From contig JAGTQE010000003.1 of the NCBI GenBank assembly GCA_018396635.1, forward strand, positions 46,642-110,641: a DNA stretch of 64,000 nt, written 5' to 3'. The translations under genes and the position numbers were made by a program. The stretch is from Candidatus Bathyarchaeota archaeon (GTDB taxonomy: Archaea; Thermoproteota; Bathyarchaeia; Bathyarchaeales; DTEX01). Shown here one piece after another: positions 4,252 through 30,454 of the stretch. The first letter of the stretch is position 1. Each line of letters starts with the position of its first letter. The notes beneath the pieces are model-generated. The model saw nothing but the letters and a program-made list of their open reading frames with translations. It did no database searches and was not told the origin of the DNA.

Positions 4252-5547
4252 TTACGCTGGTGGGTTTGGTAGGGAATCTACTTTCTTAGGTTCCTTAGCT
4301 AAGTAAACTTTTTCTTCGCTAGTCAACTCTTCAGTGTACTGGAGTTCACCCATAACCTTACAGTACTTCTCCAAATACACTTTCCTAGCATAAATGTTTC
4401 TTGCGCTAGCCCTCTCCTCCATTATTACGATGCTTGCATAAATGTCTTCGACGTCAGCCCTCTCATCAATATGTACTTCCTCCGCCACAACTGGCCCACG
4501 TATTTTACCTCTCTTACCTATCCGAACACGCCCAGCCTTTAACCCATCCGTAGTGGTGATCTCTCCGCCAACATCAACGGAATTGATTGCTTCTATGCGC
4601 TGAGCCTTCAATCTGCCGCCAACATCTATAGATTTAGCCCAAAGCGTTCCACCAACATCTACCACTCCACCAACATCCAGATCGCCAGACAGCTTTAGGT
4701 GCCCCTCAACCTTAAGCTTACCACCAACATCTATCTTAATCCCTTCAGCGTTGCCGTAGATGACAACAGACCCCCCAACATCAATCTCACTAAAGATTAA
4801 ATCTCCGTCTACCTCTAATGTTCCGCCAACATCAATCTTCTCACCCTTAGATAAGCCGGCCAATTTCACGCTTCCACCAACATCAATAATCCTGAAGACA
4901 AGCTGTTTGCTTGAGCGGAAAGCCCCGCCAACATCAATCTTATCCCTTATTTCCCCGCCAGCAATCTCAGCTATACCACCAACATCCAGATCCTCAGCAA
5001 AGACTTCAGATTTGGCACGGAAAGAGCCACCAACATCAATTTTATCTACTTTAACAATACCTTCCCCATAAAAGGAGCCGCCGACATCCAGTAGCGCACC
5101 AACCGTTGAGCCAGCCACCTCAACAGCTCCACCAACATCTATGGCTTTTGCATTTACACTCCCTCCCACATTAAGCCTCCCGCCGACATCAACGTTCTCA
5201 GCATCCAAGTCCCCCCTGACACGCAGCTCCCTATCAATATCAACATTCTTAGCTTTCATACTGCCCTCCACAAATAGTGAACCCTTCTCAATCTTTACAG
5301 CCCCCTCAATCAGCAAGTCCCCCTTAACGGTTACCTCGCAATCCTTACCCCTCAGCTGCGCTGAGGAAACACTGCAATTAAATATACAATCGCCATAACA
5401 TTGAATTATTCCGGAGACCGTAATCTTCTGAAGCCCCTCCTTAGCCTCAATTGTTGCACCCTCCTCCACATATAAGTTCCCCTCAACAGCATCTAGGGAA
5501 ATTGTTGCTCCTTGTGGAACCCTAATATCGCCCAATATCCTCACCAC
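4252..5547 (-). CDS. Beta-helix repeat protein, bactofilin/polymer-forming cytoskeletal-like
   Basis: 14 DVGG motifs, mostly at 17-aa spacing; V/I/G-rich; no signal peptide. Confidence 0.7.
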   Translation of the reverse strand: MVRILGDIRVPQGATISLDAVEGNLYVEEGATIEAKEGLQKITVSGIIQCYGDCIFNCSVSSAQLRGKDCEVTVKGDLLIEGAVKIEKGSLFVEGSMKAKNVDIDRELRVRGDLDAENVDVGGRLNVGGSVNAKAIDVGGAVEVAGSTVGALLDVGGSFYGEGIVKVDKIDVGGSFRAKSEVFAEDLDVGGIAEIAGGEIRDKIDVGGAFRSSKQLVFRIIDVGGSVKLAGLSKGEKIDVGGTLEVDGDLIFSEIDVGGSVVIYGNAEGIKIDVGGKLKVEGHLKLSGDLDVGGVVDVGGTLWAKSIDVGGRLKAQRIEAINSVDVGGEITTTDGLKAGRVRIGKRGKIRGPVVAEEVHIDERADVEDIYASIVIMEERASARNIYARKVYLEKYCKVMGELQYTEELTSEEKVYLAKEPKKVDSLPNPPA

Positions 5548-10058: not shown

Positions 10059-10134
10059 TCTTTTCTCTGGAACCACATATAGCCATCTTTTGCTTGCTGC
10101 AATGCTGCGGCTACCTCTCAATACCTTGAGGTCG

Positions 10135-10464
10135 CTAGGATTGAGATTTCGGCCTTAAATACTCTATTCTCATCTGCAGCTTTTCTTTCTCCTCACTATA
10201 TCCTTTTATCTTCCTCTCTATCTCAGTCTTTTTTGACTCAATTTCCTTCCTACGCCTAGAGACTGCGTTAAGTCTCACCTCAAGACGGCTGTACATATAC
10301 TGATCCCTGCAGCGCCGCATCTCCTCAAATATCCTATTTTCCTCATTTAAAACGGCGGAGTACTCTTCCTCAATCGCCTTCCTCTCTGCCTCTAAATCGG
10401 CCAGCATTCTCTCAATCTTTTGGAGCTCAGCCCTCAGTTTTTCTAATACTGTTGTCTGCGACAT
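10135..10464 (-). CDS. Hypothetical coiled-coil protein
   Basis: 109-aa E/K/R-rich heptad pattern. Confidence 0.7.
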   Translation of the reverse strand: MSQTTVLEKLRAELQKIERMLADLEAERKAIEEEYSAVLNEENRIFEEMRRCRDQYMYSRLEVRLNAVSRRRKEIESKKTEIERKIKGYSEEKEKLQMRIEYLRPKSQS

Positions 10465-10536
10465 ATATAATAAATCATAGTAGCATAAAGATAAATTTAT
10501 CTTTATTCGACCTGTGGCATATATTATATATAAGTC

Positions 10537-12447
10537 TCAAGACTCCCAGGGAAATCTGCAGCGGATTAGATCGCTCATTCCATCATGCCATTCGCTACCC
10601 GCTATGGTGAAGTGAGCCTTTAAAGGTTCCTCGCCACGAACAAGCTTGATCATAATATGGTTCCAACCACTCTTAATCTCAGCAGACTTATAGTTTGACC
10701 CATCACCGCCGTAATTTGGCCTTAGTGGTAAAGGCTTAACAGTTTCATGAAGCAGCTCACCATTAAGCCATATCCTCATTCTACTATTGTTTGGTACACC
10801 GACTATAACTCTCCTATCGCTTGGCGAATAAATAAAATGTCTCAGGTATATTACTCCAGGCCTTCCCATGAAGAAACTCTCAACCTCAAGGGAATTTTCA
10901 GGCCATGAGACCTCCTTCCACTTCTCGCCAGCACAATAAAGGTTCAAATCTCTCTCCGGAGGTAAAGATGCCTCCAGAGATAGTGGTTCACGATAGACTT
11001 CAGAAACTAGCCAACGAAAACTTCCTACAAAAACCACTGGAATTATTGCTGGTCGCGGCCTCTCATCTAATATCACCTTAATTAAACATTCATTTGAAGG
11101 GTTTACGTGAGCTGCTGGCGCGGTAACTGAGAACGCAAAGCTTGCCCTTTCCCCCGCCCGTAGCTTGATTGGCTGGGGAACGTTAGGCTTTAAAATCCAT
11201 TCCTTAGGTGCGTAAACCTCCACTCTACCTGATATCATAGTTAACCGCGTATTTTCAATCGTTACCGTGAATCTATTCTCCTTATATGGAATGACTGCTG
11301 GGCCATCCTCGTAGGTCACTGAAATATTCACGCTCGCTAATTCGTGGCTAATGGTATTGGGTGAAAGATCCCATAAACTTTTAATTCTGCTTATCGAGGA
11401 TTGAATTGCTTCCTCGGCGCCCGTGAAATCATCCTCTTCCGATATTTTAACTAGAGTATCGAAATATGAGAGAACTTTTTCACCTATACTGCATACAATA
11501 TCCGTTAGCTCGCCAAGCGTCTTTGGAACATAGATATTCCTTATACCATTGCTCACGATAACGGATTCTCCCAGAGGCTTAATCCATTTCTCTGGAAGGT
11601 TCTCTCTACCATATATTATTCCCCATATAGCGCCTACCGTTGCCCCAGTGCAATCAGTATCCCACCCACAGTTCACCGCCTTACAAATAGCGTCTCCGAA
11701 ATCCTCCCCATAGAGTAGACCAATCGTCTGAAAGCCCAGGTTTATAGGCGAATACTGGGCTATGGGGCTATAGACGGTCTCCTTAACCCTCTCACGAGCT
11801 TCCCTCCAATCTAGCCCATTTAAGTAGGCCTCCAGCGCTAGCCTAATGGCCTTCGAAGTTAAAGATTTTTCAGGAATAGCTGCCAAACCAAGCTGCACCA
11901 GCTTAACTCTGTCCTCTATAAAGAATGCTGCTGACTCGACGACCGCGTTAAATATTTCGCCGTAAACCGATTCGCCTCCCGCATGATCGCATATAGCATC
12001 TTGATAGGCATATTTAGCGGCGACATGCGGTGCGCCCGGCGCTATACAAGCCCATATCTCCGACCTTATTGGGCAACCCATACAATCCTTAAACCAGTTA
12101 TTATACCATCCTGAAACCGGAGGCTGTAGTCCTAGTTTAAGATTCATCTTATGTAAACCATACTCATCATAGTTATAGAGAACGCAGTCAAGCCAGTATT
12201 CAGCTAAATCTCGCGCCGTCAATGAAAGCCCGCGGTCTCTAAGCGCCTGAAGCCAGACAAGCTGAATTTCTAAGTCGTCATTAGGCATACCACCCTCAAT
12301 GATCTTAGGATACCACCAAACATCAAACATCTCCTCCCGCCCATAAAGAGATTCTAGAGGGCCGCCAACGGTTCCGCCAGCATTCTTACCTAGCCAGCAA
12401 CCGTAAACCTTATTCCGATAAGTTTTTCTACTAATGTGCAATTCCAA
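10537..12447 (-). CDS. ADP-ribosylglycohydrolase-family protein with C-terminal beta-sandwich domains
   Basis: GCWLGKNAGGT.G, NDDL and DTDCTGAT motifs; Ig/NEW3-like and PA14-like C-terminal region. Confidence 0.85.
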   Translation of the reverse strand: MELHISRKTYRNKVYGCWLGKNAGGTVGGPLESLYGREEMFDVWWYPKIIEGGMPNDDLEIQLVWLQALRDRGLSLTARDLAEYWLDCVLYNYDEYGLHKMNLKLGLQPPVSGWYNNWFKDCMGCPIRSEIWACIAPGAPHVAAKYAYQDAICDHAGGESVYGEIFNAVVESAAFFIEDRVKLVQLGLAAIPEKSLTSKAIRLALEAYLNGLDWREARERVKETVYSPIAQYSPINLGFQTIGLLYGEDFGDAICKAVNCGWDTDCTGATVGAIWGIIYGRENLPEKWIKPLGESVIVSNGIRNIYVPKTLGELTDIVCSIGEKVLSYFDTLVKISEEDDFTGAEEAIQSSISRIKSLWDLSPNTISHELASVNISVTYEDGPAVIPYKENRFTVTIENTRLTMISGRVEVYAPKEWILKPNVPQPIKLRAGERASFAFSVTAPAAHVNPSNECLIKVILDERPRPAIIPVVFVGSFRWLVSEVYREPLSLEASLPPERDLNLYCAGEKWKEVSWPENSLEVESFFMGRPGVIYLRHFIYSPSDRRVIVGVPNNSRMRIWLNGELLHETVKPLPLRPNYGGDGSNYKSAEIKSGWNHIMIKLVRGEEPLKAHFTIAGSEWHDGMSDLIRCRFPWES

Positions 12448-18131: not shown

Positions 18132-18968
18132 ATGCCGAAGATGAAGCTTGGTATAATAATTTCGTTAAGGAGAGAATTAGAGGAAGAGATTAAAAAAGTC
18201 CATGAGTATGGTTTTCCGACATGCCAAGTTGCGTGCTGGGATGTAAGCTTATATAGCTCTGAAATGGCTCATTTACTCAAGAGACTATCAAGCGAATACG
18301 ACGTTGAGGTTACAGCTATATGGGCAGGTTTACCTGGTAAGTATGTCTGGGATTTTATAGAGGGCCCCAGCACAGTAGGTCTAGTACCTATAGAGATGAG
18401 GGAGGTTCGCGTGAAGGCTCTGAAGAAGGCATCCGACTTCACTAGAGAATCTTGTGTCGAAGATATTGTGACCCACGTTGGATTCATACCTGAGAACCCA
18501 AAAGATCCTGTTTACATTTCACTTATAGATGTGCTTAAAGATATAGCCAGGTATTGTGCAAGAAATGGGCAGTTCTTTCTCTTTGAAACTGGTCAAGAAA
18601 CTCCCATAACTCTTCTTAGAACCATTGAGGACGTTGGTATGGATAACCTTGGAGTAAATTTTGATCCAGCTAACCTCTTAATGTATGGGAAAGCTAATCC
18701 AATAGATGCTTTGGATATACTTGGCAAATATATTCGGGGCGTTCATGCGAAGGATGGCGAATATCCTACTAACGGGAGGAAGCTAGGTAAAGAAAAACCT
18801 TTAGGAGAAGGGAGGGTAAACTTCCCTGCGCTAATATTGAAGCTCAAGGCGTTAGGCTATAATAGGGCTATAACTATAGAGCGTGAAATCCGCGGGCCGC
18901 AACAGATAGAGGATATACTTAAAGCTAAAAGAATTTTAGAGAAGCTCATCTATAATACCTGGGCTTAA
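18132..18968 (+). CDS. Sugar phosphate isomerase/epimerase (xylose isomerase-like TIM barrel)
   Basis: FETGQE, NFDPANL, VHAKDG, TIERE. Confidence 0.9.
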   Translation: MPKMKLGIIISLRRELEEEIKKVHEYGFPTCQVACWDVSLYSSEMAHLLKRLSSEYDVEVTAIWAGLPGKYVWDFIEGPSTVGLVPIEMREVRVKALKKASDFTRESCVEDIVTHVGFIPENPKDPVYISLIDVLKDIARYCARNGQFFLFETGQETPITLLRTIEDVGMDNLGVNFDPANLLMYGKANPIDALDILGKYIRGVHAKDGEYPTNGRKLGKEKPLGEGRVNFPALILKLKALGYNRAITIEREIRGPQQIEDILKAKRILEKLIYNTWA

Positions 18969-19945
18969 AATTCTCTCGGGGCAGTTAGGTCAGATATATC
19001 AACACTATGATCATATATTCGGTTCAGTAGTGAAATAACTGCAACTAGATCTTGGGCTCTCTCAATAGGCAAAGCTCTAATTATAGATTCAGTTCTTCTA
19101 CTCAATTCCTTAACATTTGCCTCCCTCTCTCTTACAGATTCAGCAATAATAATATTACGTGATAGAAAAGCTGTAACCGCATCATTATAACAATCATAAA
19201 TTGCTTTATAGAGCTCATGCAAGGCCTTAGACAAATTTTCACTAATCTTTAAATCCCTAAATTTAATCGTATACTCAGATATTTGGGATGACTGATCAGC
19301 CACCGCTTCAACAGAGCTTGCAGCTAACCTATAATCTAAGCAATCTATGGGGTGCATGTTCAGCTTCTCACTTAAACTTGGATTTTGTACAAGAGTCCTC
19401 AAAACTCTGACAAGTAAGAAGTAAAGTCTATCTACTTCATTATCCCTAGCAATAACATTTCTAGCCAAGTGAATGTCCCCTTCTAGGAGGGCAGTGATAG
19501 AGTCTCTGCACATGCCTGAAGCTATCAGATGCTCGCGGCGCAGAATTTTCTCAGGTGATAGAGCTGAAGGCTCCAGCAAACATTGCATAACGATCTTACT
19601 GTAATCTTCCTCAATTATCTCTAAGCCTATAAGGCGAGCTGCCGTCTTCTTAATTATGTCCCTCTCTTCAGGTGTTATTCGCCCCTTCGCCTCAACAGCT
19701 ATAATATCATAGCCAAGAAGATATTTACTAATAATCTCTCGGCCCAGATGCGGCCCAGGCTTAATAACAGTTGATCTCGGCGCTGATTCAACATTATATT
19801 TCGGGTCAATTATCAATTTGCCATCCGGTGTTTCCATGCTTGCAACTATTGTTCCACGAGCTATGCCGTTCCGTATGGCCCACTCCTTTGGCAATGTTAC
19901 AAAAAATGTTCCGCTCCTTGTCATCTGTATTCTTCGAAATTCCAT
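18965..19945 (-). CDS. phoU: PhoU-family phosphate uptake regulator with AbrB-like N-terminus
   Basis: RRIQ..GTFFVTLPKEW, YLLGYD, DNEVDRLY. Confidence 0.9.
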   Translation of the reverse strand: MEFRRIQMTRSGTFFVTLPKEWAIRNGIARGTIVASMETPDGKLIIDPKYNVESAPRSTVIKPGPHLGREIISKYLLGYDIIAVEAKGRITPEERDIIKKTAARLIGLEIIEEDYSKIVMQCLLEPSALSPEKILRREHLIASGMCRDSITALLEGDIHLARNVIARDNEVDRLYFLLVRVLRTLVQNPSLSEKLNMHPIDCLDYRLAASSVEAVADQSSQISEYTIKFRDLKISENLSKALHELYKAIYDCYNDAVTAFLSRNIIIAESVREREANVKELSRRTESIIRALPIERAQDLVAVISLLNRIYDHSVDISDLTAPREF

Positions 19946-20060: not shown

Positions 20061-21587
20061 ATGTCAGACAATATGGAAAGTTTAAAGGCTGCAATATCTC
20101 TCATAATTGAGGCTGGATACCAAATTGATAAAGATGCCTTTGAACTCCTAAAAGATCTTTCGCAAAAAGTCAACTTAACCTCTCTGGTTAAAACAGTTAT
20201 TGATGAAATTAATTCTCTCTCTGAAAGACCCATATTTATAACGCGTAAGTTTATTGAAGAAAAAGTCGGTAAAATCGTTCTAACAGAGGAAGTGAGAGGT
20301 ACAAGCTACGTTACTGGGAAAACAGGCTTCCAGCCATATGCTAGAGGCGTTGAAAGCGACTTTAAAGTAATAAGCGATCCTACGGAAAAGATAAGTAGCA
20401 TAGGTTCTCTTGAGGATTGCATAGAATATTTTAGGAGCAGATTCAAAAAGTTAAGCAGGATAATAAGGAGCAGGACGGATGCTAAGGATGCTGGTAGCAT
20501 CTCTGATGCTCTAAAAGCATCAGAGAATTCAAAAGTAAAGTTTATTTGTATGGTGACCGAGAAACGTGAGACAAAGCGTGGAGTTTTCTTTAGGGTTGAG
20601 GACTTAGAGGATTATGCCATAATCTTTGTGCCAGCAGAAAAACATGAAGTATATTTAAAGGCCCAAAAAATACTTTTAGATCAAGTTATCTGCATAAGCG
20701 CATTACGTGGAAAAAATGACTTACTTATAGTGGAAGATATAGTATGGCCTGATGTCCCACTTAAAAAACATAATAGGGCTCCAATACCTATTTGCGCCGC
20801 TCTACTTTCAGATCTTCATGTGGGGAGTAAAATGTTTATGGAGAAAGAGTTTAAGCGCTTCGTTAGGTGGCTGAGAGGTGAGATTGGTGGAGATAAACTC
20901 AGAGAGTTAGCGGGCCGTGTAAAATATTTGATTATAGCTGGCGATGTCGTTGATGGCGTTGGAATATATCCTCAACAATATGATGAGTTAGAAATAAAAG
21001 ATCTCCACAAACAGTATGAGAGGGCTGCTAAGGAACTTGAGGAGATCCCTGACTACATTGAAATAATCATTATACCGGGCAACCATGATGCGACAAGACG
21101 GGCTCTTCCTCAACCAGCTATTTCACGGGAATACGCCAAGCCACTTTTAGATTTAGGGAGCCATCTTTTAGGCGACCCTTCCGTCATAAGTCTATATGGA
21201 GTGACGATTCTTTTATCACATGGACGAAGTTTAGATGATATCATAGCCTCGTCTCCAAGTATGAGTTTTCAATCTCCTGAAGAAGCTATGAAAGTTCTCT
21301 TACAGTGTAGGCATCTGGCTCCAATTTATGGAATGAGGACATTAATAGCTTCTGAGAAAGTAGACCATCTAGTTATAGAACACGTGCCTGATATATTTCA
21401 TGCAGGACATGTTCACATGATGAAATATACTACTTATCGAGGAATTCTTGTAGTAAACTCAGGAACATGGCAGAAACAAACAGAGTATCAGAAGGAGATG
21501 GGTCATATACCTAATCCAGGCATAATTCCCGTGGTAGACTTACAAAGCTTTCAGGTTTTCACAATAGATTTTGTCTCAGCGATTTAA
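20061..21587 (+). CDS. polB: DNA polymerase D small (exonuclease) subunit DP1
   Basis: SDLHVGS, AGDVVDG.GIYP, PGNHD, HGRSLDD, RHLAP, GHVH. Confidence 0.96.
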   Translation: MSDNMESLKAAISLIIEAGYQIDKDAFELLKDLSQKVNLTSLVKTVIDEINSLSERPIFITRKFIEEKVGKIVLTEEVRGTSYVTGKTGFQPYARGVESDFKVISDPTEKISSIGSLEDCIEYFRSRFKKLSRIIRSRTDAKDAGSISDALKASENSKVKFICMVTEKRETKRGVFFRVEDLEDYAIIFVPAEKHEVYLKAQKILLDQVICISALRGKNDLLIVEDIVWPDVPLKKHNRAPIPICAALLSDLHVGSKMFMEKEFKRFVRWLRGEIGGDKLRELAGRVKYLIIAGDVVDGVGIYPQQYDELEIKDLHKQYERAAKELEEIPDYIEIIIIPGNHDATRRALPQPAISREYAKPLLDLGSHLLGDPSVISLYGVTILLSHGRSLDDIIASSPSMSFQSPEEAMKVLLQCRHLAPIYGMRTLIASEKVDHLVIEHVPDIFHAGHVHMMKYTTYRGILVVNSGTWQKQTEYQKEMGHIPNPGIIPVVDLQSFQVFTIDFVSAI

Positions 21588-21595
21588 AGGATACT

Positions 21596-22879
21596 TCAGG
21601 AATCATTCTGGCGTAGCGATATAGATTTTGGCTTATAACTTATTATATATCTAAATCTATCATCTTCAGAGAAAACATCCATTATGATTCTCCGTGATAC
21701 ACCCAAACCTATCTTCTTTGTTCGCCCGTAGCGTCCAAGGCTAACGATGCGAGAATTTAATAGTCCCATAACATCTAATTCATTTATTAATCCACTAACC
21801 CTCCTCTGCGTCAGCGGGCTTATGCCCATTTGCTCGCAGATCTCTAAATAGAGATTATAAATGTCTCCTGTGAAGCATCGATCAGGATCCATCTTATTAA
21901 TAAGATACACACTTAAGAGAACTAGTTTTGAGTGCGTTGGTAGACTTTTTATGCTCTCATAGACCTGATCATGCTCTATTCTTTCCTGGGCTTCTCTCAC
22001 ATGCTCTTCAGTAATCCTTCTATCACCCTTCCTCTCAGCTATTTCACCAGCAACACGTAGAAGGTCGAGAGCTCTCCGCGCGTCGCCATGCTCAGACGCC
22101 GCTAGGGCAGCACAAAGTTTAAGCGCACCTTCTGAGAGAACGCCGTCATAGAACGCTATTTTAGCCCTCTCCATGAGTATATCTTGGAGTTCGTCAGCCG
22201 TATAAGGTTTAAAAACCATCTCCTCTTCACTTAGTGTGCTTAGAACTCTTGGATCAAGAAGATCCTTAAATTTTAAGTCATTAGATATGCCAATTATTGA
22301 AACCTTACTCTGATTTAAGCCCTCATTTATTCTAGTAAGTTCATAAAGTAATTCGTCGCCACGAATCTTTATTAAGGCATCAATCTCGTCTAAGGCAACT
22401 ATGAAGATTATACCTTGAGATTCTAAGTTTTTCCTGAACCTATCAAAGATCTCACCAACAGCCAGGCCTGTAAAAGGAACCTTAACATTAATGCTTGAGC
22501 ATAAAGCCGCCAGGACCCTATATTCTGTTCCTGCAAGCCGGCAGTTTACAAAGCAAACTTTAACTGGTGAACCTACCTCTTCAGCTTTTTGGGCAAGTTT
22601 ATTTAACACAAACTTAACAACAGCAGTCTTTCCAGTACCAGTTTTCCCATAAATTAAAACATTTGAACATGGCGACCCCTTTAAGGCAGGAGCTGTTATC
22701 TCACCTAAGCGAAGAATCTCTTCTCTCCTATGCGGGAGATTATCAGGAACGTAATCATGTCTCAAAACCTCTCTATTCTTGAAAATCCTTGACCCCTTAA
22801 GAAAATGCGCGAATACCTCGTCTAAGATATTTTCCCGCTCTCTCATCCGTCTAAACCTCGATGAAAGATCTCTACTCAT
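21596..22879 (-). CDS. cdc6: Orc1/Cdc6 replication initiator
   Basis: YVPDNLPHR, YGKTGTGKT, LDEID, GDARRALDLLR, and wHTH wing SLGRYGRT. Confidence 0.97.
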   Translation of the reverse strand: MSRDLSSRFRRMRERENILDEVFAHFLKGSRIFKNREVLRHDYVPDNLPHRREEILRLGEITAPALKGSPCSNVLIYGKTGTGKTAVVKFVLNKLAQKAEEVGSPVKVCFVNCRLAGTEYRVLAALCSSINVKVPFTGLAVGEIFDRFRKNLESQGIIFIVALDEIDALIKIRGDELLYELTRINEGLNQSKVSIIGISNDLKFKDLLDPRVLSTLSEEEMVFKPYTADELQDILMERAKIAFYDGVLSEGALKLCAALAASEHGDARRALDLLRVAGEIAERKGDRRITEEHVREAQERIEHDQVYESIKSLPTHSKLVLLSVYLINKMDPDRCFTGDIYNLYLEICEQMGISPLTQRRVSGLINELDVMGLLNSRIVSLGRYGRTKKIGLGVSRRIIMDVFSEDDRFRYIISYKPKSISLRQNDS

Positions 22880-22964
22880 TTAAAAGCAGGGAGAATAAGT
22901 GATTAAAGGGCTCTCCTACAAAAAAATAGACAAATAATTAAAAGGTATTAAAGAGGGGAGACCC

Positions 22965-22986
22965 ACCCCTTTGTTTCTACTGGAAA
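22965..22986 (-). promoter_or_regulatory. Origin recognition box ORB1 (TTTCCAGTAGAAACAAAGGGGT)
   Basis: Matches archaeal ORB consensus TTCCAnTGGAAAnnnnGGGG with G-string. Confidence 0.88.
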
Positions 22987-23211
22987 TAGTCTCAGCAAAC
23001 TAAAATTATTTTTGTTTTCTTTTGGAAAAATAGTCTCCCATTTTAGTTAGGAAATTTCTATATTTAACGAGATTTATACAATATTGTATACTATTTCAGC
23101 AAAATATCTTGAAATATTTCAACATAATATTACTTAAAATTTTATAGAAATCACATGGAAAAATGGCAAAATATCGCATCAAAAAATTATTATACCATAT
23201 TCTTCGCTTGT

Positions 23212-23233
23212 TTTCCAGTGGAAAACCAGGGGT
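23212..23233 (+). promoter_or_regulatory. Origin recognition box ORB2 (TTTCCAGTGGAAAACCAGGGGT)
   Basis: Matches ORB consensus with G-string. Confidence 0.9.
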
Positions 23234-23399
23234 CTGGGTGATTTTTCTTATGAAATTCTGGCAACAATTCACAGCTTACCTTATGTTTTTCATTAACTTT
23301 AATGTGAATTAACTGTTAAAGGAGTATAAACATTGTCATAATTCTGTCTTCTTCGAATAACTGTGGAAAAATTAAGGTAAAATTTTTGTTAATGAGTTC

Positions 23400-23421
23400 A
23401 CCCCTTCATTTCCTGTGGAAA
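23400..23421 (-). promoter_or_regulatory. Origin recognition box ORB3 (TTTCCACAGGAAATGAAGGGGT)
   Basis: Matches ORB consensus; inverted relative to ORB2. Confidence 0.88.
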
Positions 23422-23619
23422 ATACTGAAAATTTTTGTTTATTTGTCTTTTTAGAAAATATCCAAGCTGTTAACTTTGTTAATTTAAAAATTTGCAAATT
23501 TTCTTTCTTTTTGAAAAATAGTTCATTTTTTTCTTTTTATTTTCCTTATCATTAACCAAATAATTTATAACCTGTGAAATGATAATTGTTAATTGCTGGC
23601 GGGAGATTGGGGAAGACCG

Positions 23620-24027
23620 TTGCCTATAAGAAAAATGAAAATTGAAGTTTATGATGAATCGGGAAACCGTTACACAATTAGTTTTGAAGGAAGAATTACT
23701 AGAGAAAAGGCTCAGAAAGTTTTTGATATAATTGAGCTACTCGGGGGTATACCTGTAGCAGAACCATCTACTTTTTCACAGGATCTTTCAAAAATCGAAA
23801 AGGTTCTTTTTGTTGTAAAGAAGAACTTTCCTTTCTCTTGGTTTTCAGCTAAAGAAGCGCAAGATGCATATGAAAGGGATGTTGGCGAGCCAATAAGCTT
23901 AAGCGCTATCTCAACATACCTTTCCAGATTGGCAGAGAGGGGCATTCTACTGAAGAAAAAAAATGAAAACAAAACATTCTTCAAGATTGTTTCACAGGAA
24001 GTGAAAGGAATAATAAAATCATTATGA
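23620..24027 (+). CDS. Origin-adjacent hypothetical protein with C-terminal winged helix
   Basis: ORF 23593-24027, probable TTG start 23620; WFSAKE..AYE...EPISLSAISTYLSRLAERGIL wHTH. Confidence 0.8.
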   Translation: MPIRKMKIEVYDESGNRYTISFEGRITREKAQKVFDIIELLGGIPVAEPSTFSQDLSKIEKVLFVVKKNFPFSWFSAKEAQDAYERDVGEPISLSAISTYLSRLAERGILLKKKNENKTFFKIVSQEVKGIIKSL

Positions 24028-24723
24028 ACCAAATAGCCTTTCCTTTTTCAAAATCTCCTCCATATCTTTATTGAGTCGATACACGTAAGGAATTTTATCC
24101 TCCTTTCTCTCCACATAGCCGCGCATATATAGACTCTTCAGTAAACGTGCCGTATGCTCTCTTGTCAACTTAATTCTATCCTTTATTTCAGAAGCTGTTT
24201 TCTCTCCTTCATTTGCCAGAATCTCAAGAACTTTTAATTCTGTCTCAGTTAGTGATGTAAGAACTTTATCTCCTCTTGGAAGTATGGGTGATCCGGTCCT
24301 GTTGATCTCTTTCTTTTCAGTTTCGAAAATCTTCTCTTCTTCAATTTTACTAATTTTTTCTACCACTTCATTATATTTGAGCATTAAGCTATCGATCTTG
24401 TTCTTCAAGTCTTTATGCTCTGAACAAATCGTCTCATTATTCCTAATTAAATCCTCTACTTTTTCCTTAAGATTAAGAACTAGAGAGCGCATTTCCTCAA
24501 GGTCCCTGCCAACAGAAACTTCTCTATGGCTCTCTATGATCTCTTGGATTTTCTCTTCAATTCTCTTAAGATCCTTGTTAAAACTGAAGATTACATCTTC
24601 AATAATTTTTCTTGCTTCTATGTACTTTATGGTCTCACTCCTTATCCTCTTAAAATAGAACAGCAGGAATACTGATGTTATGCAAAATATGACCGTATAG
24701 GCCAGTAATGCTATGATCTCCAT
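24022..24723 (-). CDS. Membrane-anchored coiled-coil protein with C-terminal MarR/TrmB-like wHTH
   Basis: N-terminal hydrophobic helix (aa ~3-24), heptad region, LTETELKVLEIL...LTREHTARLLKSLY.RGYVER. Confidence 0.82.
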   Translation of the reverse strand: MEIIALLAYTVIFCITSVFLLFYFKRIRSETIKYIEARKIIEDVIFSFNKDLKRIEEKIQEIIESHREVSVGRDLEEMRSLVLNLKEKVEDLIRNNETICSEHKDLKNKIDSLMLKYNEVVEKISKIEEEKIFETEKKEINRTGSPILPRGDKVLTSLTETELKVLEILANEGEKTASEIKDRIKLTREHTARLLKSLYMRGYVERKEDKIPYVYRLNKDMEEILKKERLFGS

Positions 24724-24950
24724 GATATCACCATCTGTGACATCACAAACCTTGTGATCCTGAAAATCACAATGTGATCATATCACAATCATGGTTATAA
24801 TCACATCAAGGTCCAAATAAAATTTTCGTTTCTCTATGGTCATGTCGCCAAAAAATAGAATCTGAATAAATATTTGCTTGGTCTTAAAATCTCGAGAGCT
24901 GTGATTTTTCACCTAGTGATGTTACGTGATGTAGCTTTGTGATGTCACAA
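24723..24950. repeat. Array of TGTGA/TCACA half-sites and GTGAnnTCAC palindromes
   Basis: 14 GTGA/TCAC tetramers in ~225 bp; TGTGACATCACAAA (24736-24749) and TTTGTGATGTCACA (24936-24949) are exact inverted copies. Confidence 0.75.
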
Positions 24951-25439
24951 TTTTTTAGAGAGAGATTTCGGCTTCGAGAGGGTGAGTAAGCTTTTTTCTA
25001 TTTCGCTTTGAAGAGTCTGGAGCACTTTCACTTGATCCTCATCTATCTGGCCTTTTTCCCATATCTCCCGATATCTTTCACTGTAGGCGCGTATCTTATT
25101 TGCTATCTCAATATATATGTCAAGTCTTGGATCTTCGAATACTCCTAAATAGCCCAATAAGATTACTGTATAGATTGATCTAATCACGTTTTTTCTTGCT
25201 TGCGCTAGGGTTCTATTAAAGGATCCGCGGCTCACACCCGATTTTAGAGACCTTAATTTAGCCTTATCCTCGTAAGTCATTTTTTTATCGACTATTTTTT
25301 CGGCTAAGATGTCTATCAGAAACGTTTCTGCCTGTACTTTTGTTAAATTGCTATTTTTAAGTAATATTTTGAAAATTGGGTCATTATTTAATGCTGTTAA
25401 CCATCTTTGAACTTCTTCTTTTAAGCTTGGATCTACCAA
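24945..25439 (-). CDS. Hypothetical protein with possible HTH
   Basis: 164-aa ORF; SNLT..Q.E...GVSRGSFNRTLAQAR helix pattern. Confidence 0.75.
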   Translation of the reverse strand: MVDPSLKEEVQRWLTALNNDPIFKILLKNSNLTKVQAETFLIDILAEKIVDKKMTYEDKAKLRSLKSGVSRGSFNRTLAQARKNVIRSIYTVILLGYLGVFEDPRLDIYIEIANKIRAYSERYREIWEKGQIDEDQVKVLQTLQSEIEKSLLTLSKPKSLSKKL

Positions 25440-25644
25440 ATGTTTTTCCCTCTAACTGGATACATTCTTGTCTACAAAACATTTAAGCTTTAATAGTTTC
25501 ACTAACGGTGGGCTCTCATGTTTGTCCGTTAAAATGTGATATAAAATATCACGGTAAGTGGGTCACAGATGTTAGATCTCCTAAATCTTTAAGAGTAGAA
25601 ATATCTTAAATATTTTATTAATGTTTTAATGCGTTGGATTGCCT

Positions 25645-25887
25645 ATGGGAAGAAGGCGGAGAAAAGTAATTCGGATACCAAAGAAGAAGTTGCCTAAAGT
25701 CTTCATTTGTCCAAGGTGTAGTCAAGAGTCTATAAGAGTAGAAATTATGGAAGGTGAAGAAGGACGAAAAGCAATAATCAGATGTGGTAATATAAATTGC
25801 GGTTTCATAAAGGAGGTTCAAGTAAAACCCTTCTTTAGAGAAGTAGACGTTTATTGTCAATTTATAGACGAATTTTACGGAGATTGA
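25645..25887 (+). CDS. elf1: Transcription elongation factor Elf1
   Basis: MGRRRRK...[10 protein letters not shown]...C..C...VDVYCQFID zinc ribbon. Confidence 0.92.
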
Positions 25888-25903: not shown

Positions 25904-26689
25904 ATGGTCAGTGTTGGGAAGGTCGAGGAATATATATTAAGGCGGATCGGAGACGAGGGAGCAATTCACATGGCTCTCATTGATCCGGAAAAGGTAACCC
26001 CTGAACTTGCGGCTCTATTGTCGCAGGAAAGCGAAGCCTCCGGCTCATCAGCAATAATGGTTGGGGGCACAACCTTAGCATCAACAGAGTTACTTAATGA
26101 CATTGTAAAGGCGATTAAGCGATCAGTGAAAATTCCAGTCATATTATTTCCAAACAATGTGACTGGCATAAGTGAATATGCAGACGCCATATGGTTTATG
26201 TCCCTGCTAAATTCAGCTGATCCGTATTTCATATTCGGCGCGCAGGCCCTCGCAGCACCATTAATTAAGAAGATGGGGTTAGAAGCAATACCGCTTGGAT
26301 ACATAATTGTTGGCGAAGGGGGATCTGCAGGCGTTATTGGCAAAGCATGTCCAATCCCATATAATAAGCCTGAACTAGCCGTGGCTCACGCTTTGGCAGC
26401 TCAATTTCTTGGAATGAGATTCGTTTATTTGGAGGCTGGGTCAGGGGCAAGCAAACCAGTTCCAGCTGAAATGATCAGAATGACTAGAGAGACCGTGGAC
26501 GTAAAGATAATTGTTGGAGGTGGTATAAAGACTAGGGAGCAGGCTGAGCGCGCCGCTAAAGCTGGCGCTGATATAGTGGTTACTGGCACTATACTTGAGA
26601 GCGGTCAGAGAGAAGGGGTTAGAGCTAAACTTAATGAAATAATAGAAGGTATAAGGAAAGGAGCTAAAAGTAGATCTAGGGGGTTTTAA
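25904..26689 (+). CDS. Geranylgeranylglyceryl phosphate synthase
   Basis: LIDPEK, IMVGGT, PVILFP, FMSLLNS, YLEAGSGA, VGGGI. Confidence 0.93.
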   Translation: MVSVGKVEEYILRRIGDEGAIHMALIDPEKVTPELAALLSQESEASGSSAIMVGGTTLASTELLNDIVKAIKRSVKIPVILFPNNVTGISEYADAIWFMSLLNSADPYFIFGAQALAAPLIKKMGLEAIPLGYIIVGEGGSAGVIGKACPIPYNKPELAVAHALAAQFLGMRFVYLEAGSGASKPVPAEMIRMTRETVDVKIIVGGGIKTREQAERAAKAGADIVVTGTILESGQREGVRAKLNEIIEGIRKGAKSRSRGF

Positions 26690-26690
26690 G

Positions 26691-27002
26691 TTGACGGCAT
26701 TCGAGCATTATTTTGAGTCTCTAAAAAAGGCTTTAGGCCGAAATAATATTTATGATATTTGGCCGGATTTTGAGCCGGAGTATGATGAGCGCGAATATGC
26801 ATGGGCAACCCTGAGGGGATTAGGTGAATCATTGCTCCTCAATTGTGGTCGATGCGACGGCCCATCTGATATGAGACACAATAAATGTAGGGCTTGTGTT
26901 GATAGGAGGAAGAGCATTGCTGAAAAAACATATGAGAAAGTTATGGGGCGGCCAATTGAGAGGTGGAACGCAATAATTCTCTGTAGAATTCATGTCGAGT
27001 AG
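26691..27002 (+). CDS. Hypothetical Cys-motif (putative Zn-binding) protein
   Basis: CGRC...CRAC; tightly packed between GGGP synthase and DP2. Confidence 0.75.
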   Translation: MTAFEHYFESLKKALGRNNIYDIWPDFEPEYDEREYAWATLRGLGESLLLNCGRCDGPSDMRHNKCRACVDRRKSIAEKTYEKVMGRPIERWNAIILCRIHVE

Positions 27003-27004
27003 CG

Positions 27005-30000
27005 TTGATCAACATGGAAGCTGAATACAGAATAAGTGAAGAATACGCTGAATACTTCTCAAATCTACTTAGCTCTCTAGAAGAAATCTATGAAATTGCT
27101 AAAAAGGCTAGGCTGAGGGGACCAGACCCTAGGCCTTACCCTGAAATAGAGTTAGCGAGCGATTTGGCGAGTCTAGTAGAGGGGTTTATTGGGCTTCCAG
27201 GACTCGCAGAGAGAATAAGAGCGCTATCAAAAACCATGTCTAGGGAAAGGGCCGCATTCAACATAGCTAAGGAGATTGTCTGTGGAAAATTTGGGCAGCT
27301 GAGTGATGAAAAGGCGGCTGATTTAGCAATCAGAACAGCTTTAGCAATATTAACAGAAGGGGTCACAGCAGCAGTTTATTCGGAGGGCATAGCCAAGGTA
27401 GCTATAAAAAATAATCCAGACGGGTCGAGATATCTGGCAGTCTACTTTGCTGGACCAATACGCTCAGCTGGCGGAACAGAGGCAGCTCTAACACCGGTTA
27501 TAGCGGATGTTGTTCGACAGTTATTGAAGTTAGATCGCTATAAGCCTACTAGGGAGGAGATAGAGCGCTTCATTGAAGAGTTAAGACTCTACGAGCGCGA
27601 GGTTGGCCGCTTTCAATATAGCGTTTCGGATGAGCAATTGAGGTTTGCACTGGAGCATCTTCCAGTTGAAGTCACTGGGACACCATCCGATCCAGTTGAA
27701 GTTGCTTCTTATCGCAATTTGCCGCGCATAGAGACTAATCGCGTTCGCGGCGGGGCGCTTAGAGTTGTAAATGACGGCATTGTTGGTAGGGCCTCAAAAG
27801 TCTTGGCCGTAGTTGAAGATCTTGGGATCAAGGGCTGGGAGTGGCTTAAGGAGATTAAGGAGATAGCAAAGGAGAAGGGTAAATCTTTAGCCAGCTTTAT
27901 GGAGGAGGTTCCAGCTGGGCGTCCAATATTATGTTTCCCATCAAGAAAAGGAGGTTTTAGACTTAGATATGGCAGGTCAAGGAATACGGGGCTCTCAGCA
28001 GTTGGGGTTCACCCACTAACTATGATAGTTTTACAAAACTTTCTGGCTGGTGGAACACAGCTTAAAATCGAGGCTCCTGGCAAATCAAGTACCGTGATGC
28101 CTGTAGATTATATTGAGACTCCGATTGTCAGGCTGAAAGATGGATCCGTGGTTAAAGTCTCTTATGAGAATATAGAGTTAGTTAAGAGGGAAGCTGAGAA
28201 GATACTTTTTTTGGGCGATATACTTATAAGCTTTGGTGACTTCCTCTATAACAATAAGCCTCTTTTGCCTCCGGGATATTGCGAGGAGTTTTGGCGGGAG
28301 GATCTTAGGAGAGCCATTATCGAAGACTTTAATGGGAATATTGAGGAAGCCGCTTCAAGAGTTGGGTTACCGTCTTCCTCGCTAAAATCTTATCTTGACG
28401 ATCCATTCAACAATAAACCTAGTATTAATGAAGCAATAACCTTAAGTAGGACCCTCAAAATTCCTTTACATCCATTATACACGTATTTTTGGTTCAGTAT
28501 ACCTGTGAAGACCCTTAAAAATATCCGAAGATGGCTTTTGAATTCCAACATTAAATTTGACGGCGAGTTAGTGGTTGAGGTACGTGGCAGCTATGATGCT
28601 GAAGTTAAAGAAGCCCTTGAGGAAATATGCATCCCGCATAGGGTTATTGGAAAATGCATTGTCATTGAAGGCTATGACGCACACTCCTTCGCTGTATCAC
28701 TTGGATTAAATAATCCTTCAGCTGAAATCTCTGAAAATTTATCAATTCTAGAGAATTTATCACGTTTAAGCGGCTTAATTTTTAGGGATAAGGCGGGAGC
28801 ATTTATAGGGGCTAGGGTTGGGCGGCCGGAGAAGGCTAAGGAGCGGGAGATGAAGCCACCAGTACATGTCTTATTCCCAGTTGGCTTAAGTGGCGGTGCT
28901 CAAAGGGATCTTATGAAGGCCTATGGGAAAGGCATGGTGAAAGTTGAGATCATTAGCCGGATTTGTCCTAAATGCCAGACAATAACTTTTAAAAGAATAT
29001 GCTCAAATTGTGGGACGGAGACAAGCCTTAGGTTCATTTGCCCAAGATGTGGTAGAGACCTTGACAGAGAAGATTGTCCGATATGTAAAATTGAAGCGAG
29101 AAGCTTTTGTCATCAGATAATCTCCATTAGGGATTTAGTCGACGAAGCTTGCCGAAAGATTGGCTATAGGCCTGAGCAGGTTAAGGGTGTGAGGGGCTTA
29201 ACAAATAAGACCAGGGTGCCAGAGCCAATCGAAAAGGGAATATTGAGGGCTAAATATGGGCTCTCAGTCTATAAGGATGGCACTATAAGATTTGATGCAA
29301 CCAATGCGCCATTAACCCATTTTAAGCCTTCAGAGATAGGTGTTTCTCTAGAGAAGCTTAGAGAGCTTGGCTACACACACGATTATTTAAATAATCCACT
29401 GACAGATCTGGAGCAGATCTGTGAGCTTAAGGTCCAGGATATTATAATTCCATGGAAATGCGCTGAATATCTTGTCTCTGTAGCAAAATTTATTGATGAG
29501 CTTCTTGAGAAGGTTTACGGGCTTCCTCCATTCTATAAGATAGATAAGCCACAAGATTTGATTGGCCACTTAATAGTTGGTTTGGCGCCACACACGTGTG
29601 CCGGGGTTTTAGGTAGAATAATAGGCTTTACAAAGCTGAATGTATGTTTTGCCCACCCCTTCTGGCATTCAGCTAAGCGGAGGGATTGTGATGGGGATGA
29701 GGATAGTATAATGTTGGCATTAGATGCTTTCTTAAACTTCTCAAGGGAGTATCTTCCAGATCAGATAGGTGGGATAATGGATTCTCCACTATTTATAATC
29801 CGAGCGGTTATGCCGGAAGATGTTCAGAGACAGGCACATGAGTTTGACGTTGCAGATAAATATCCTTTAGAATTTTATGAGGAGGCTGGTAGGTGTCGGC
29901 CAGCTAGGGAACTGCTCCCCCTCATAGATATAGTTAAGCACAGGTTTAATTCGGAATTAAAACTGCAGGGCTTTATGTTTACCGTGCCAACATCGAACAT

Positions 30001-30454
30001 TGAGGCAGGGAATAAAGAGAGCATATATAAGACCCTAAAGCGGATGAGCGATAAGCTGAATGCTCAGCTAGGGTTGGCAGAGAAGATTAAGGCGGTTGAC
30101 GCTCATATTGTTGCAGAAATAGTTTTAAATACACATTTCATCCGCGATATCTCTGGAAATTTGAGGGCTTTTGCAACGCAGAGCTTTCGATGCAAAAAAT
30201 GTAATAAGCGCTTCAGAAGGGTTCCGCTCAAGGGCGTGTGCTTAGAGTGCGGTGGTGAGTTGACGTTAACCGTGCATAGGGGTACGATAGAGAAGTATTT
30301 GGAGGACGCTTGGCGCTTAGTAAGAAAATACGGGATGTCTGAATATTATACTCAGCGTTTAACTCTGATCGAGGAGGAAATTAATTCCCTCTTTGAGGGT
30401 AGCAGAGGTGTAAAGCAATCTGACCTCTCGAAGTGGCTTCCTGACGAGAGTTAA
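27005..30454 (+). CDS. polC: DNA polymerase D large subunit DP2 (no intein)
   Basis: FAGPIRSAGGT, GGFRLRYGRSR, RVGRPEKA, AKRRDCDGDED and C-terminal Zn finger. Confidence 0.97.
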   Translation: MINMEAEYRISEEYAEYFSNLLSSLEEIYEIAKKARLRGPDPRPYPEIELASDLASLVEGFIGLPGLAERIRALSKTMSRERAAFNIAKEIVCGKFGQLSDEKAADLAIRTALAILTEGVTAAVYSEGIAKVAIKNNPDGSRYLAVYFAGPIRSAGGTEAALTPVIADVVRQLLKLDRYKPTREEIERFIEELRLYEREVGRFQYSVSDEQLRFALEHLPVEVTGTPSDPVEVASYRNLPRIETNRVRGGALRVVNDGIVGRASKVLAVVEDLGIKGWEWLKEIKEIAKEKGKSLASFMEEVPAGRPILCFPSRKGGFRLRYGRSRNTGLSAVGVHPLTMIVLQNFLAGGTQLKIEAPGKSSTVMPVDYIETPIVRLKDGSVVKVSYENIELVKREAEKILFLGDILISFGDFLYNNKPLLPPGYCEEFWREDLRRAIIEDFNGNIEEAASRVGLPSSSLKSYLDDPFNNKPSINEAITLSRTLKIPLHPLYTYFWFSIPVKTLKNIRRWLLNSNIKFDGELVVEVRGSYDAEVKEALEEICIPHRVIGKCIVIEGYDAHSFAVSLGLNNPSAEISENLSILENLSRLSGLIFRDKAGAFIGARVGRPEKAKEREMKPPVHVLFPVGLSGGAQRDLMKAYGKGMVKVEIISRICPKCQTITFKRICSNCGTETSLRFICPRCGRDLDREDCPICKIEARSFCHQIISIRDLVDEACRKIGYRPEQVKGVRGLTNKTRVPEPIEKGILRAKYGLSVYKDGTIRFDATNAPLTHFKPSEIGVSLEKLRELGYTHDYLNNPLTDLEQICELKVQDIIIPWKCAEYLVSVAKFIDELLEKVYGLPPFYKIDKPQDLIGHLIVGLAPHTCAGVLGRIIGFTKLNVCFAHPFWHSAKRRDCDGDEDSIMLALDAFLNFSREYLPDQIGGIMDSPLFIIRAVMPEDVQRQAHEFDVADKYPLEFYEEAGRCRPARELLPLIDIVKHRFNSELKLQGFMFTVPTSNIEAGNKESIYKTLKRMSDKLNAQLGLAEKIKAVDAHIVAEIVLNTHFIRDISGNLRAFATQSFRCKKCNKRFRRVPLKGVCLECGGELTLTVHRGTIEKYLEDAWRLVRKYGMSEYYTQRLTLIEEEINSLFEGSRGVKQSDLSKWLPDES

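Follow-up and report, generated by a model that had tools for sequence, protein, structure and literature searches.

Does the DNA beside an archaeal replication origin carry its own means of attachment to the cell membrane? How archaeal chromosomes are positioned and segregated is largely unknown, and an uncharacterised three-gene module with a defined sequence motif, located in a 64,000-nt stretch of the genome of Candidatus Bathyarchaeota archaeon (GCA_018396635.1, contig JAGTQE010000003.1, positions 46,642-110,641, forward strand; hereafter the window), bears on this question. The genome assembly amounts to 1.45 Mb, and coordinates given without another label are positions of the window. 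The module adjoins a predicted replication origin (oriC) and consists of genes A, B and C together with an array of GTGAY/RTCAC repeats at the promoter of B, which encodes a predicted membrane-anchored winged helix-turn-helix (wHTH) protein. We assign a probability of about 0.5 to the reading that B binds this array and regulates itself, with tethering of the bound DNA to the membrane following as a physical consequence. The features on which this reading draws are as follows.

21596-22879, minus strand: Orc1/Cdc6 initiator gene (Pfam Cdc6_lid 3.2e-29, Cdc6_C 8.3e-28)
22880-23592, no strand: predicted oriC, an AT-rich spacer of 713 bp with three repeats resembling origin recognition boxes (ORB), from repeat families D2, I2 and I4 and a GC content of 0.30
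23564-23593, plus strand: gene A promoter, a TTTATAA box and then the conserved CYTGTGAA(G/A)TGATAAT
23635-24027, plus strand: gene A, predicted small wHTH protein of 130 aa
24022-24723, minus strand: gene B, predicted transmembrane (TM) anchor, coiled coil and MarR/TrmB-type wHTH
24724-24944: C-B spacer, 221 bp
24724-24806, no strand: array cluster 2, adjoining the start of B
24736-24747: palindrome TGTGACATCACA, in cluster 2
24899-24949, no strand: array cluster 1, at and just past the C stop codon
24938-24949: palindrome TGTGATGTCACA, in cluster 1
24945-25439, minus strand: gene C, predicted all-helical protein of 164 aa
25458-25475, minus strand: palindromic element GTAGACAAGAATGTATCC, between the TATA box and the Shine-Dalgarno site of C
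25535-25567, no strand: further GTGAY sites upstream of C (TGTGATATAAAATATCAC, GTGGGTCAC)

A GTGAY/RTCAC array at the gene B promoter

A sequence-only reading of this DNA had pointed to a dense array of GTGA/TCAC sites between C and B, and counts over the 1.45 Mb genome bear this out: GTGAT/ATCAC reaches 11 occurrences per 250 bp at the array, the highest density in the genome, against 4 at the next-best place, and GTGA/TCAC reaches 14 against 8. Eight of the 23 copies of TGTGAT in the window fall within 24742-24943, and the 12-mer palindrome TGTGAYRTCACA has two copies in the genome, at 24736 and 24938, which are the two edges of the array. No other promoter of the genome carries a comparable cluster, and the binder of the array has no evident regulon elsewhere. 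Half-sites are arranged in two ways, as the palindrome GTGAYRTCAC of 10 bp or in direct repetition at the preferred spacings of 7, 11 or 18 bp. The two clusters differ in strand: the repeats of cluster 2 are GTGAY, mostly with GTGA on the sense strand of B, whereas those of cluster 1 are RTCAC on the sense strand shared by C and B. Across the C-B spacers of the Bathyarchaeia loci, this bias amounts to 12 GTGA versus 56 TCAC after the C stop codon, and to 83 versus 39 in the last 110 nt before the B ATG.

The TATA box of B is probably a conserved (A/T)TTTAAG sequence that stands 15-30 nt ahead of the B-proximal cluster, and the final GGTGAT before the B ATG, at -8, is probably the Shine-Dalgarno site of B. 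The array stands on both sides of this TATA box and brackets gene C, and more distant families of the order have an extra cluster upstream of the TATA box too. Candidate array sites lie 1.8-2.7 kb from the Cdc6 start codon, and the GTGAY clusters 1-4 kb from oriC. Further sites had been placed at 25535-25552 and 25558-25567, and were indeed found at 25535-25552 and approximately 25558-25566; these sites upstream of C are present in only some members of the genus, and are strong in a complete relative of 2.15 Mb (G040, at 120548-120680). In that genome the pattern TGTGAY-N1-14-TGTGAY has 15 matches, 9 of them inside a 1.4-kb stretch around B and C and the others isolated and scattered; a reversed-pattern control gave 6 matches.

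Protein B, a predicted membrane-anchored wHTH protein

Gene B is convergent with gene A, and the TM helix, coiled coil of about 100 aa and wHTH that the sequence-only reading had assigned to its product are each recovered. Residues 158-216 match Pfam MarR (4.4e-10, 39.7 bits, cut-off 24.6) and TrmB (2.5e-9, 37.3 bits, cut-off 25.6), residues 3-24 form the sole strongly hydrophobic stretch (19-residue Kyte-Doolittle mean 2.62), and heptad periodicity runs over residues 36-126, with coiled-coil chains of the PDB matching residues 45-135. Because only 2-3 residues precede the helix and a flank of net charge +4 follows it, the remainder of the protein is predicted to be cytoplasmic, and under this predicted topology the helix is an anchor and not a sensor. 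A PDB sequence search returned coiled coils and one MarR chain (E 0.0023) only. Among 20 aligned orthologues, the invariant positions fall in a juxtamembrane motif (D-x3-SFN-x2-L) and in the wHTH, where they include LTREHTARL.

Canonical MarR proteins are of approximately 150 aa, and the helices that flank their wHTH form the dimer and the ligand pocket. In B, 17 residues only follow the wHTH match, and residues 1-150 are given over to the TM helix and the coiled coil. Its domain places B in the MarR/TrmB wHTH superfamily, yet by predicted architecture it stands outside it, as a tail-less coiled-coil protein with an N-terminal membrane anchor and a single C-terminal wHTH that would face the cytoplasm. 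The Pfam and NCBIfam matches of the three proteins include no ParB-type family, and their array follows the motif GTGAY instead of parS; judged by these matches, B is not a ParB. There is likewise no ribbon-helix-helix (RHH) family among the Pfam matches, and the predicted models, which cover A and C, contain no RHH fold. A complex prediction for two copies of B (residues 28-233) with C gave a score of 0.00 against a mark of 0.32; it was run without controls and has no bearing either way on contact between B and C.

Conservation within the Bathyarchaeia

B is present in 37 and C in 38 of the 41 genomes of the order, and the missing genes carry no weight in three of the remaining genomes, since in two (G034, G035) the contig with the Cdc6 orthologue stops at or near oriC, while the third (G023) has no orthologous Cdc6 match. 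C and B are adjacent at all 20 loci taken from 20 genomes, and 18 of these stretches also contain Cdc6, the other two being cut by contig ends. The same holds for 27 named Bathyarchaeia contigs, one of which is the same as one locus of the 20-locus set: C is next to B in all 27, and Cdc6 is included in 24, with contig ends cutting the other three. The conserved order of the block is PolD small subunit, Cdc6, oriC, A, B, C, GGGP synthase and PolD large subunit. Insertions of 2.5-3.5 kb separate A from B and C from the Elf1-like gene in some families, and B, the array and C stay together. In other families of the order, as at one locus of G040 (L038, 5518-8095), two genes encoding products of 341 aa and 527 aa (the latter with a GSGKT Walker A motif) are inserted between A and B, and by eye this pair looks to be of NurA/HerA type.

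ATCACA/TGTGAT is the top-enriched 6-mer of the C-B spacers (103 observed versus 3.7 expected, or 27.5-fold) and is found in 20 of 20 spacers, and the C-B array recurs in an AmoA-bearing ammonia oxidiser of another class. Conservation of the motif and linkage to the origin among relatives had both been set beforehand as checks on the idea of an origin-side module, and both came out in its favour, with B lying less than 5 kb from the Cdc6 orthologue in 54 of 66 genomes, namely those in which both genes are listed on one contig, and in 13 of 17 families.

Occurrence in other families of the phylum

The B profile has matches in 173 of the 301 genomes of a sample of the phylum. The ammonia-oxidising archaea (AOA; family f18) possess the whole block from PolD small subunit to PolD large subunit, and one member carries archaeal AmoA. 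B is found 1.2-1.3 kb from Cdc6 in nine out of nine complete AOA genomes, and in a tenth (G041) the two genes are adjacent across the numbering start. At locus L112 of this family, the B homologue again combines a TM helix with a coiled coil and contains the helix RSREHTSRLMKKLF; its gene is preceded by repeats that include TGTGATGTTTGTGATGA, TTTGTGATTATGTTTGTGA, ATCACGATAAATCACA and GTTTGTGATG, with the C homologue upstream. The same locus has a 53-aa open reading frame (ORF; 6097-6258) between B and A that is SpoVT/AbrB-like by eye and is absent from the window.

At 20 loci from other families, GTGAY density was compared over stretches of 200 bp, and at 14 of these loci the densest stretch touches the region upstream of B, the start of its operon or the 3' end of C. 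In families f36, f40 and f30, an HTH-CBS gene stands ahead of B in the operon and C is divergent: GTGA sites occur at the operon start, and a cluster still follows the C stop codon although C is divergent from B. In several other classes, a gene that combines an XRE-like HTH with a CBS pair immediately precedes B on the same strand (L129, 6042-6614; L122, approximately 7330-7990; L135, approximately 1990-2590), in an apparent operon with B, and in L122-L124 GTGA sites overlap its start codon.

Four families depart from close linkage between B and the origin.

Family f24 (Methanomethylicia by source names): B 50-193 kb from Cdc6, no TM helix
Family f37: B 115-128 kb from Cdc6, no TM helix
Family f31: B 5-32 kb from Cdc6, TM helix present
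Family f26: B 15 kb from Cdc6, TM helix present

The TM-less B of f24 keeps both an upstream GTGA array (8 sites per 200 bp in L126) and a convergent A gene, and among the TM-bearing forms of B that we examined, none is more than 32 kb away from the Cdc6 orthologue. We considered the relation between TM helix and origin adjacency as a test of tethering and set it aside, as it is a trend only, with exceptions in f31, f26 and f22, among families that are not independent of one another.

Genes A and C and their promoters

The small wHTH gene that had been placed just beyond oriC is gene A, for which we take the ATG at 23635 as the start (the TTG at 23593 is likewise open). Its Pfam wHTH matches are all sub-threshold, and its assignment comes from the predicted model (mean predicted local distance difference test score, pLDDT, 80), which has an N-terminal beta-beta-alpha unit and a C-terminal winged helix, and from a Foldseek search in which wHTH repressors were matched, AntR best (7.9e-4), then NolR, Fur, SmtB and MecI. 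The classes represented are thus the ArsR/SmtB, Fur and BlaI/MecI repressors; a PDB sequence search with A found no relative (best E 0.062). The protein start MK(V/I)EVYDE is conserved among 19 sequences, and the promoter core TA(T/A)AAC-N2-GTGA is present in 20 of the 21 upstream regions listed (all except L042). GTGA sites also lie directly downstream of the TATA box of A. A sediment metatranscriptome contig of 387 nt (depth 8.6, 13 differences) covers 23611-23997, which is nearly exactly the extent of gene A. Expression of the gene in a relative would fit this contig, though DNA carry-over is possible.

The third gene had been credited with an HTH-like motif. Gene C is present and is the most conserved of the trio (70-80% identity within the genus, versus approximately 50-60% for B), whereas its HTH is only weakly suggested: a sigma-4/LuxR-like HTH may lie around SRG(A/S)FNRTL.QAR.N, as hinted by DUF134 (E=0.079), by a Z of 7.3 to a LuxR-type DNA-binding domain, which is within the stated noise of the tool, and by an Atlas cluster (score 0.79) in which 14% of members carry Sigma70_r4. 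The predicted model (pLDDT 85) is all-helical with a C-terminal helical hairpin. Protein C matches no Pfam family and has no clear structural neighbour; Foldseek returned no PDB match at E<=0.001, a PDB sequence search found no relative, and naming by VIA-align was rejected, as the matches are helical hairpins with Z<=8.2, within the noise of that tool. The C family has at least 4382 members, and the 120 listed are all unnamed or named hypothetical.

Upstream of C stands a different palindrome, GTATAC-N5/6-GTAT(C/A/T)C, between the TATA box and the Shine-Dalgarno site, whose consensus in the order (GTATACAAAAATGTATCC) is matched with at most 4 mismatches in 18 of 20 upstream regions. It also occurs in the ammonia oxidiser L112 (approximately 4838-4855), whose C homologue has GTATACAGATTTGTATAG before its start, and in the Hodarchaeota-labelled L072 (approximately 5931-5948), where the C homologue has GTCTACAATTTTGTATCC. 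This distribution suggests that the palindrome is probably the own operator of C, separate from the array and travelling with C. The C homologue of L072 (5941-6552) has 203 aa and 45% identity, and the contigs on which it occurs are labelled Hodarchaeota and Promethearchaeota. An AAA ATPase gene adjoins it, a PolD small-subunit gene (10077-11603) is 3.5 kb away, and neither B nor A was found at this locus, for which mis-binning and a real Asgard occurrence are both possible explanations.

An element resembling that of the C promoter, TTATACAATATTGTATAC, lies inside oriC at 23074-23091, between the first and second ORB-like repeats, and scores 16.7 with the matrix built on C-promoter sites. A related element occupies the same position in the 11 genus members aligned. 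Most origins outside the genus score below 8, and we do not take the element as evidence for binding of C to oriC.

Candidate binder, proposed mechanism and rival explanations

Which of the three proteins binds the array? Co-occurrence makes B the most economical candidate. In family f13 the array, B and C persist and A was not found in three out of three genomes that are 97-100% complete, while the C homologue that occurs without B (L072) has kept its own palindrome and has no GTGAT array. The recognition helix of B, (S/T)REH(T/V)(A/S)R, is kept across classes, and in family f22, where EEH or KEH replaces REH, the two loci are without the array.

The analysis shows the domain architecture of B, the uniqueness of the array in the genome and its position around a promoter, and the deep co-conservation of B, array and proximity to the origin; B as the binder, its dimerisation, repression and tethering, and any role in origin positioning, segregation or control of initiation are inferred. 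B would dimerise via its coiled coil, with its wHTH domains binding GTGAY half-sites. With sites clustered on both sides of the B TATA box, at the 3' end of C and, in some genomes, upstream of C, several B dimers could form a nucleoprotein complex that represses the B promoter and brackets gene C, which would amount to autoregulation. Since the anchor is integral and the only such clusters of the genome lie 1-4 kb from oriC, bound origin-proximal DNA would be fixed to the membrane. That the module has a dedicated function in anchoring or segregating the origin is a more tentative suggestion. With similar caution, B and the GTGAY array might be regarded as an archaeal chromosome-to-membrane attachment site, an origin anchor in the sense of Jacob's replicon model that would extend from Bathyarchaeia to AOA. 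In this case, DNA near the origin would be kept at the envelope by several B dimers anchored in the membrane, new origins would be positioned or segregated without a ParA motor, and A and C, each of which has a conserved operator of its own next to oriC, could couple the complex to replication initiation.

Several observations weigh against binding and tethering by B. The sequence-only reading noted that no ParA or SegA gene is in the window, and indeed the ParA/MinD-type families PF13614 and PF01656 have no match on its whole contig (matches are on three other contigs), and so no NTPase partner of these families lies near the module; no ORF for a ParA/ParM/TubZ-type NTPase is present among the neighbouring genes, the ParM and TubZ families having had no dedicated search. 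In 128 of the 301 genomes sampled from the phylum, the B profile matches nothing at E<=1e-5. Nor do TM helix and origin proximity go together cleanly, as the B proteins of f31 and f26 have a TM helix yet lie 5-32 kb from Cdc6, and the B of f22 is adjacent to Cdc6 and is apparently TM-less or ambiguous. In AOA genomes, the strict paired pattern shows no strong concentration at the locus (1-2 of 15-21 matches). Abutting 5-bp half-sites are, moreover, unusual for MarR-type dimers. The entire neighbourhood from PolD small subunit to PolD large subunit is syntenic across classes, and the origin linkage may consequently be inherited gene order. Lastly, the array stays with the B promoter where B is TM-less and 50-193 kb from Cdc6 (f24, f37), and origin tethering is therefore not the ancestral or only role of the array. 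The proposal of an origin tether thus stands in its anatomy, its origin linkage and its motif, and needs modifying where it ties the array to the origin as such: on the distribution of sites, the core role of the array is that of a putative operator of B, belonging to the B promoter, and tethering would be a property of the anchored forms of B.

A rival reading is a purely local transcription circuit, in which the array is no more than an operator with many sites, used by B, perhaps together with A and C, to control all three genes; adjacency to the origin would reflect inherited synteny or replication-timed expression or dosage, there would be no tether, and the TM helix would serve regulation, for example sequestration or regulated release. 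We hold such a circuit to be a distinct, if minority, possibility. The sites overlap or flank the TATA box down to the ATG, as is typical of repressors, the array is kept by the TM-less, origin-distant B, the neighbourhood is syntenic as a block, and not only has C a separate palindromic operator (18 of 20 regions), but GTGA sites follow the TATA box of A as well. However, an anchored B bound to DNA would put the locus at the membrane regardless of purpose, and at least 10 half-sites in two or three clusters exceed the needs of simple repression; with no cluster elsewhere in the genome, B would have no regulon beyond its neighbours, and it possesses no extracellular or sensor domain through which release could be controlled. 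Alternatively, A, C or an unlinked factor may bind the array, with B binding other DNA or none specifically, as DNA binding is predicted for A and C too, both genes are conserved along with B, and the fold of A resembles BlaI/MecI-type repressors. We consider this improbable, as the array persists without A in f13, the C homologue lacking B has no array, the C promoter bears a different conserved palindrome that travels with C, and the array is found upstream of B or its operon in 14 of 20 distant loci.

The strand bias of the clusters raises the further question of whether the repeats act in RNA, either by pairing of AUCAC in the C 3' untranslated region with GUGAU in the B 5' untranslated region of a C-B co-transcript, or as Shine-Dalgarno/anti-Shine-Dalgarno-like elements that control translation of B. 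The biases are opposite (12 versus 56 and 83 versus 39, GTGA versus TCAC), minimum free energy folds pair the two clusters, with 5 of 12 spacers at z <= -2.0, and the last GGTGAT before the B ATG looks Shine-Dalgarno-like. In a sediment metatranscriptome, three contigs of 93-97% identity cover A, the 3' end of C with cluster 1, and the start of the GGGP synthase gene; the second of these, from a relative, runs from the 3' end of C through cluster 1 (24851-25028, depth 2.5, with DNA carry-over possible). Such contigs show presence in an RNA library only, and three hot-spring metatranscriptomes gave 0, 0 and 1 read (raw reads, approximately 3-5% of each sampled). Against action in RNA, both clusters persist in f36, f40 and f30, where C and B lie on opposite strands and no co-transcript is possible; distant families of the order have a cluster on the upstream side of the TATA box; the sites make up DNA palindromes of 10-12 bp, as is usual for dimeric proteins; the motif is preceded by T or TT, where a Shine-Dalgarno site would have GG; folding of 7 of 12 spacers is no better than that of shuffled sequences (z > -2.0); and no Rfam family reaches its gathering score. 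We have accordingly set the RNA variants aside as, taken jointly, highly unlikely. Least probable of all is that the module is the remnant of a partition cassette of an integrated plasmid or virus that chanced to land beside oriC. The low GC content (0.30-0.36 over 23-26 kb) would suit such a remnant, and promoter repeat arrays resemble plasmid centromeres. Conversely, the module is conserved at the same place across classes of the phylum, PHROGs gave only weak generic regulator matches, no integrase, tRNA gene or partition ATPase is nearby, and patchy strain-level presence or absence with flanking att sites was not seen.

The origin and its neighbouring genes

An archaeal origin has been described as an AT-rich region with ORB repeats adjoining an orc1/cdc6 gene (PMC4010727), and the spacer 22880-23592 fits this definition as a predicted origin. 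A repeat-family search placed ORB-like repeats at 22964-22986, 23211-23233 (inverted) and 23399-23422, and these blocks are conserved in 11 of the 11 genus members aligned. The GC content has its minimum of 0.30 in oriC and stays at 0.30-0.36 across 23-26 kb of the window. On either side lie the following genes.

18965-19945, minus strand: PhoU-type gene
20061-21587, plus strand: PolD small subunit
25639-25887, plus strand: Elf1-like zinc ribbon
25904-26689, plus strand: GGGP synthase
26691-27002, plus strand: small conserved ORF
27005-30454, plus strand: PolD large subunit

The PhoU-domain protein has an N-terminal AbrB/MazE-like domain (Pfam 7e-19 and 1.9e-4), and its gene belongs to the conserved origin neighbourhood in 16 of 20 loci of the order. 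The small ORF between the genes for GGGP synthase and PolD large subunit encodes 103 aa with CxxC-type cysteines; it is found at 54-91% identity in many loci of the class, and was undetected in several more distant loci.

Significance and comparison with known systems

Bathyarchaeia and AOA, both of them abundant, share this origin-side module, of which no description was found in the literature searched (supplementary files being outside its scope). In the parts of a 2024 review that bear on the subject, SegA/SegB is the sole archaeal segregation system named, and its mechanism is given as not understood (PMC7617429). AOA include cultured members, and a single origin has been mapped in them, according to the portion of the source that treats them (PMC4010727). 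The module further offers reagents, in the form of a soluble B fragment, a 230-bp target DNA and a genome-unique site for chromatin immunoprecipitation. Should B prove to be an autoregulator only, a conserved regulatory trio within a replication island of PolD, Cdc6 and oriC would still be a place at which replication or the cell cycle might be controlled.

Among regulators, B is like MarR/TrmB factors (PF01047, PF01978) in having a wHTH that scores above curated cut-offs and in the palindromic sites that precede its gene, as in many autoregulated members, and is unlike them in lacking the helical dimerisation and ligand domain, in place of which it has a TM helix and approximately 100 aa of coiled coil, and in being associated with at least 10 half-sites. 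In ArnR of Sulfolobus, which regulates archaellum genes and includes a sensing module, the DNA-binding domain is N-terminal and the TM helices are C-terminal. B resembles it as an archaeal membrane-tethered DNA-binding domain, and differs in its opposite predicted topology, the absence of a sensor domain and its linkage to the origin. SegB, another archaeal DNA-binding protein, is not known to have a membrane anchor. SegB of Sulfolobus binds specific chromosomal sites and has been proposed to arrange DNA for segregation together with the ParA-like SegA (PMC7617429). B is likewise an archaeal chromosomal DNA-binding candidate for segregation, by prediction, but no SegA-like ATPase is linked to it.

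In bacteria, membrane tethers of the origin region include RacA with its ram sites, RocS and Noc, and also RicO/ricS of Staphylococcus aureus, in which a DNA-binding domain and a membrane-binding element are combined to the same end. B shares with RicO, RacA, RocS and Noc the union of a DNA-binding domain (wHTH) and a membrane element (TM helix) in one protein, and its candidate sites, to which it would bind, are similarly origin-proximal. The bacterial proteins, however, rely on amphipathic helices or partner proteins and on sites dispersed over the origin region, whereas in B the N-terminal TM helix is integral to the membrane, the coiled coil is long, and a single compact array stands at the promoter of the gene itself. 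B is archaeal, and the likeness is one of functional class, without a demonstrated sequence relationship.

The closest parallel for the array is found in ParR/parC of plasmid R1 and similar type II/Ib partition operators, in which the same DNA is both operator and centromere. Here too, clusters of short repeats approximately one helical turn apart flank the promoter of the putative binder gene, and the operator DNA is proposed to double as the assembly site of a higher-order complex of B. ParR is nevertheless an RHH protein, unlike the wHTH of B on its coiled coil with a TM anchor, and of the hallmarks of a partition cassette the module has the repeat array at the promoter of a candidate adaptor gene and no adjacent ParM/ParA-type NTPase; it is, besides, chromosomal, origin-flanking and conserved across classes. 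By analogy, the proposed module would combine the operator-centromere idea of ParR/parC with that of a bacterial origin-region membrane tether, and if binding and anchoring are confirmed, B and its array would represent an archaeal, integral-membrane counterpart of origin-region tethers that is at the same time its own operator.

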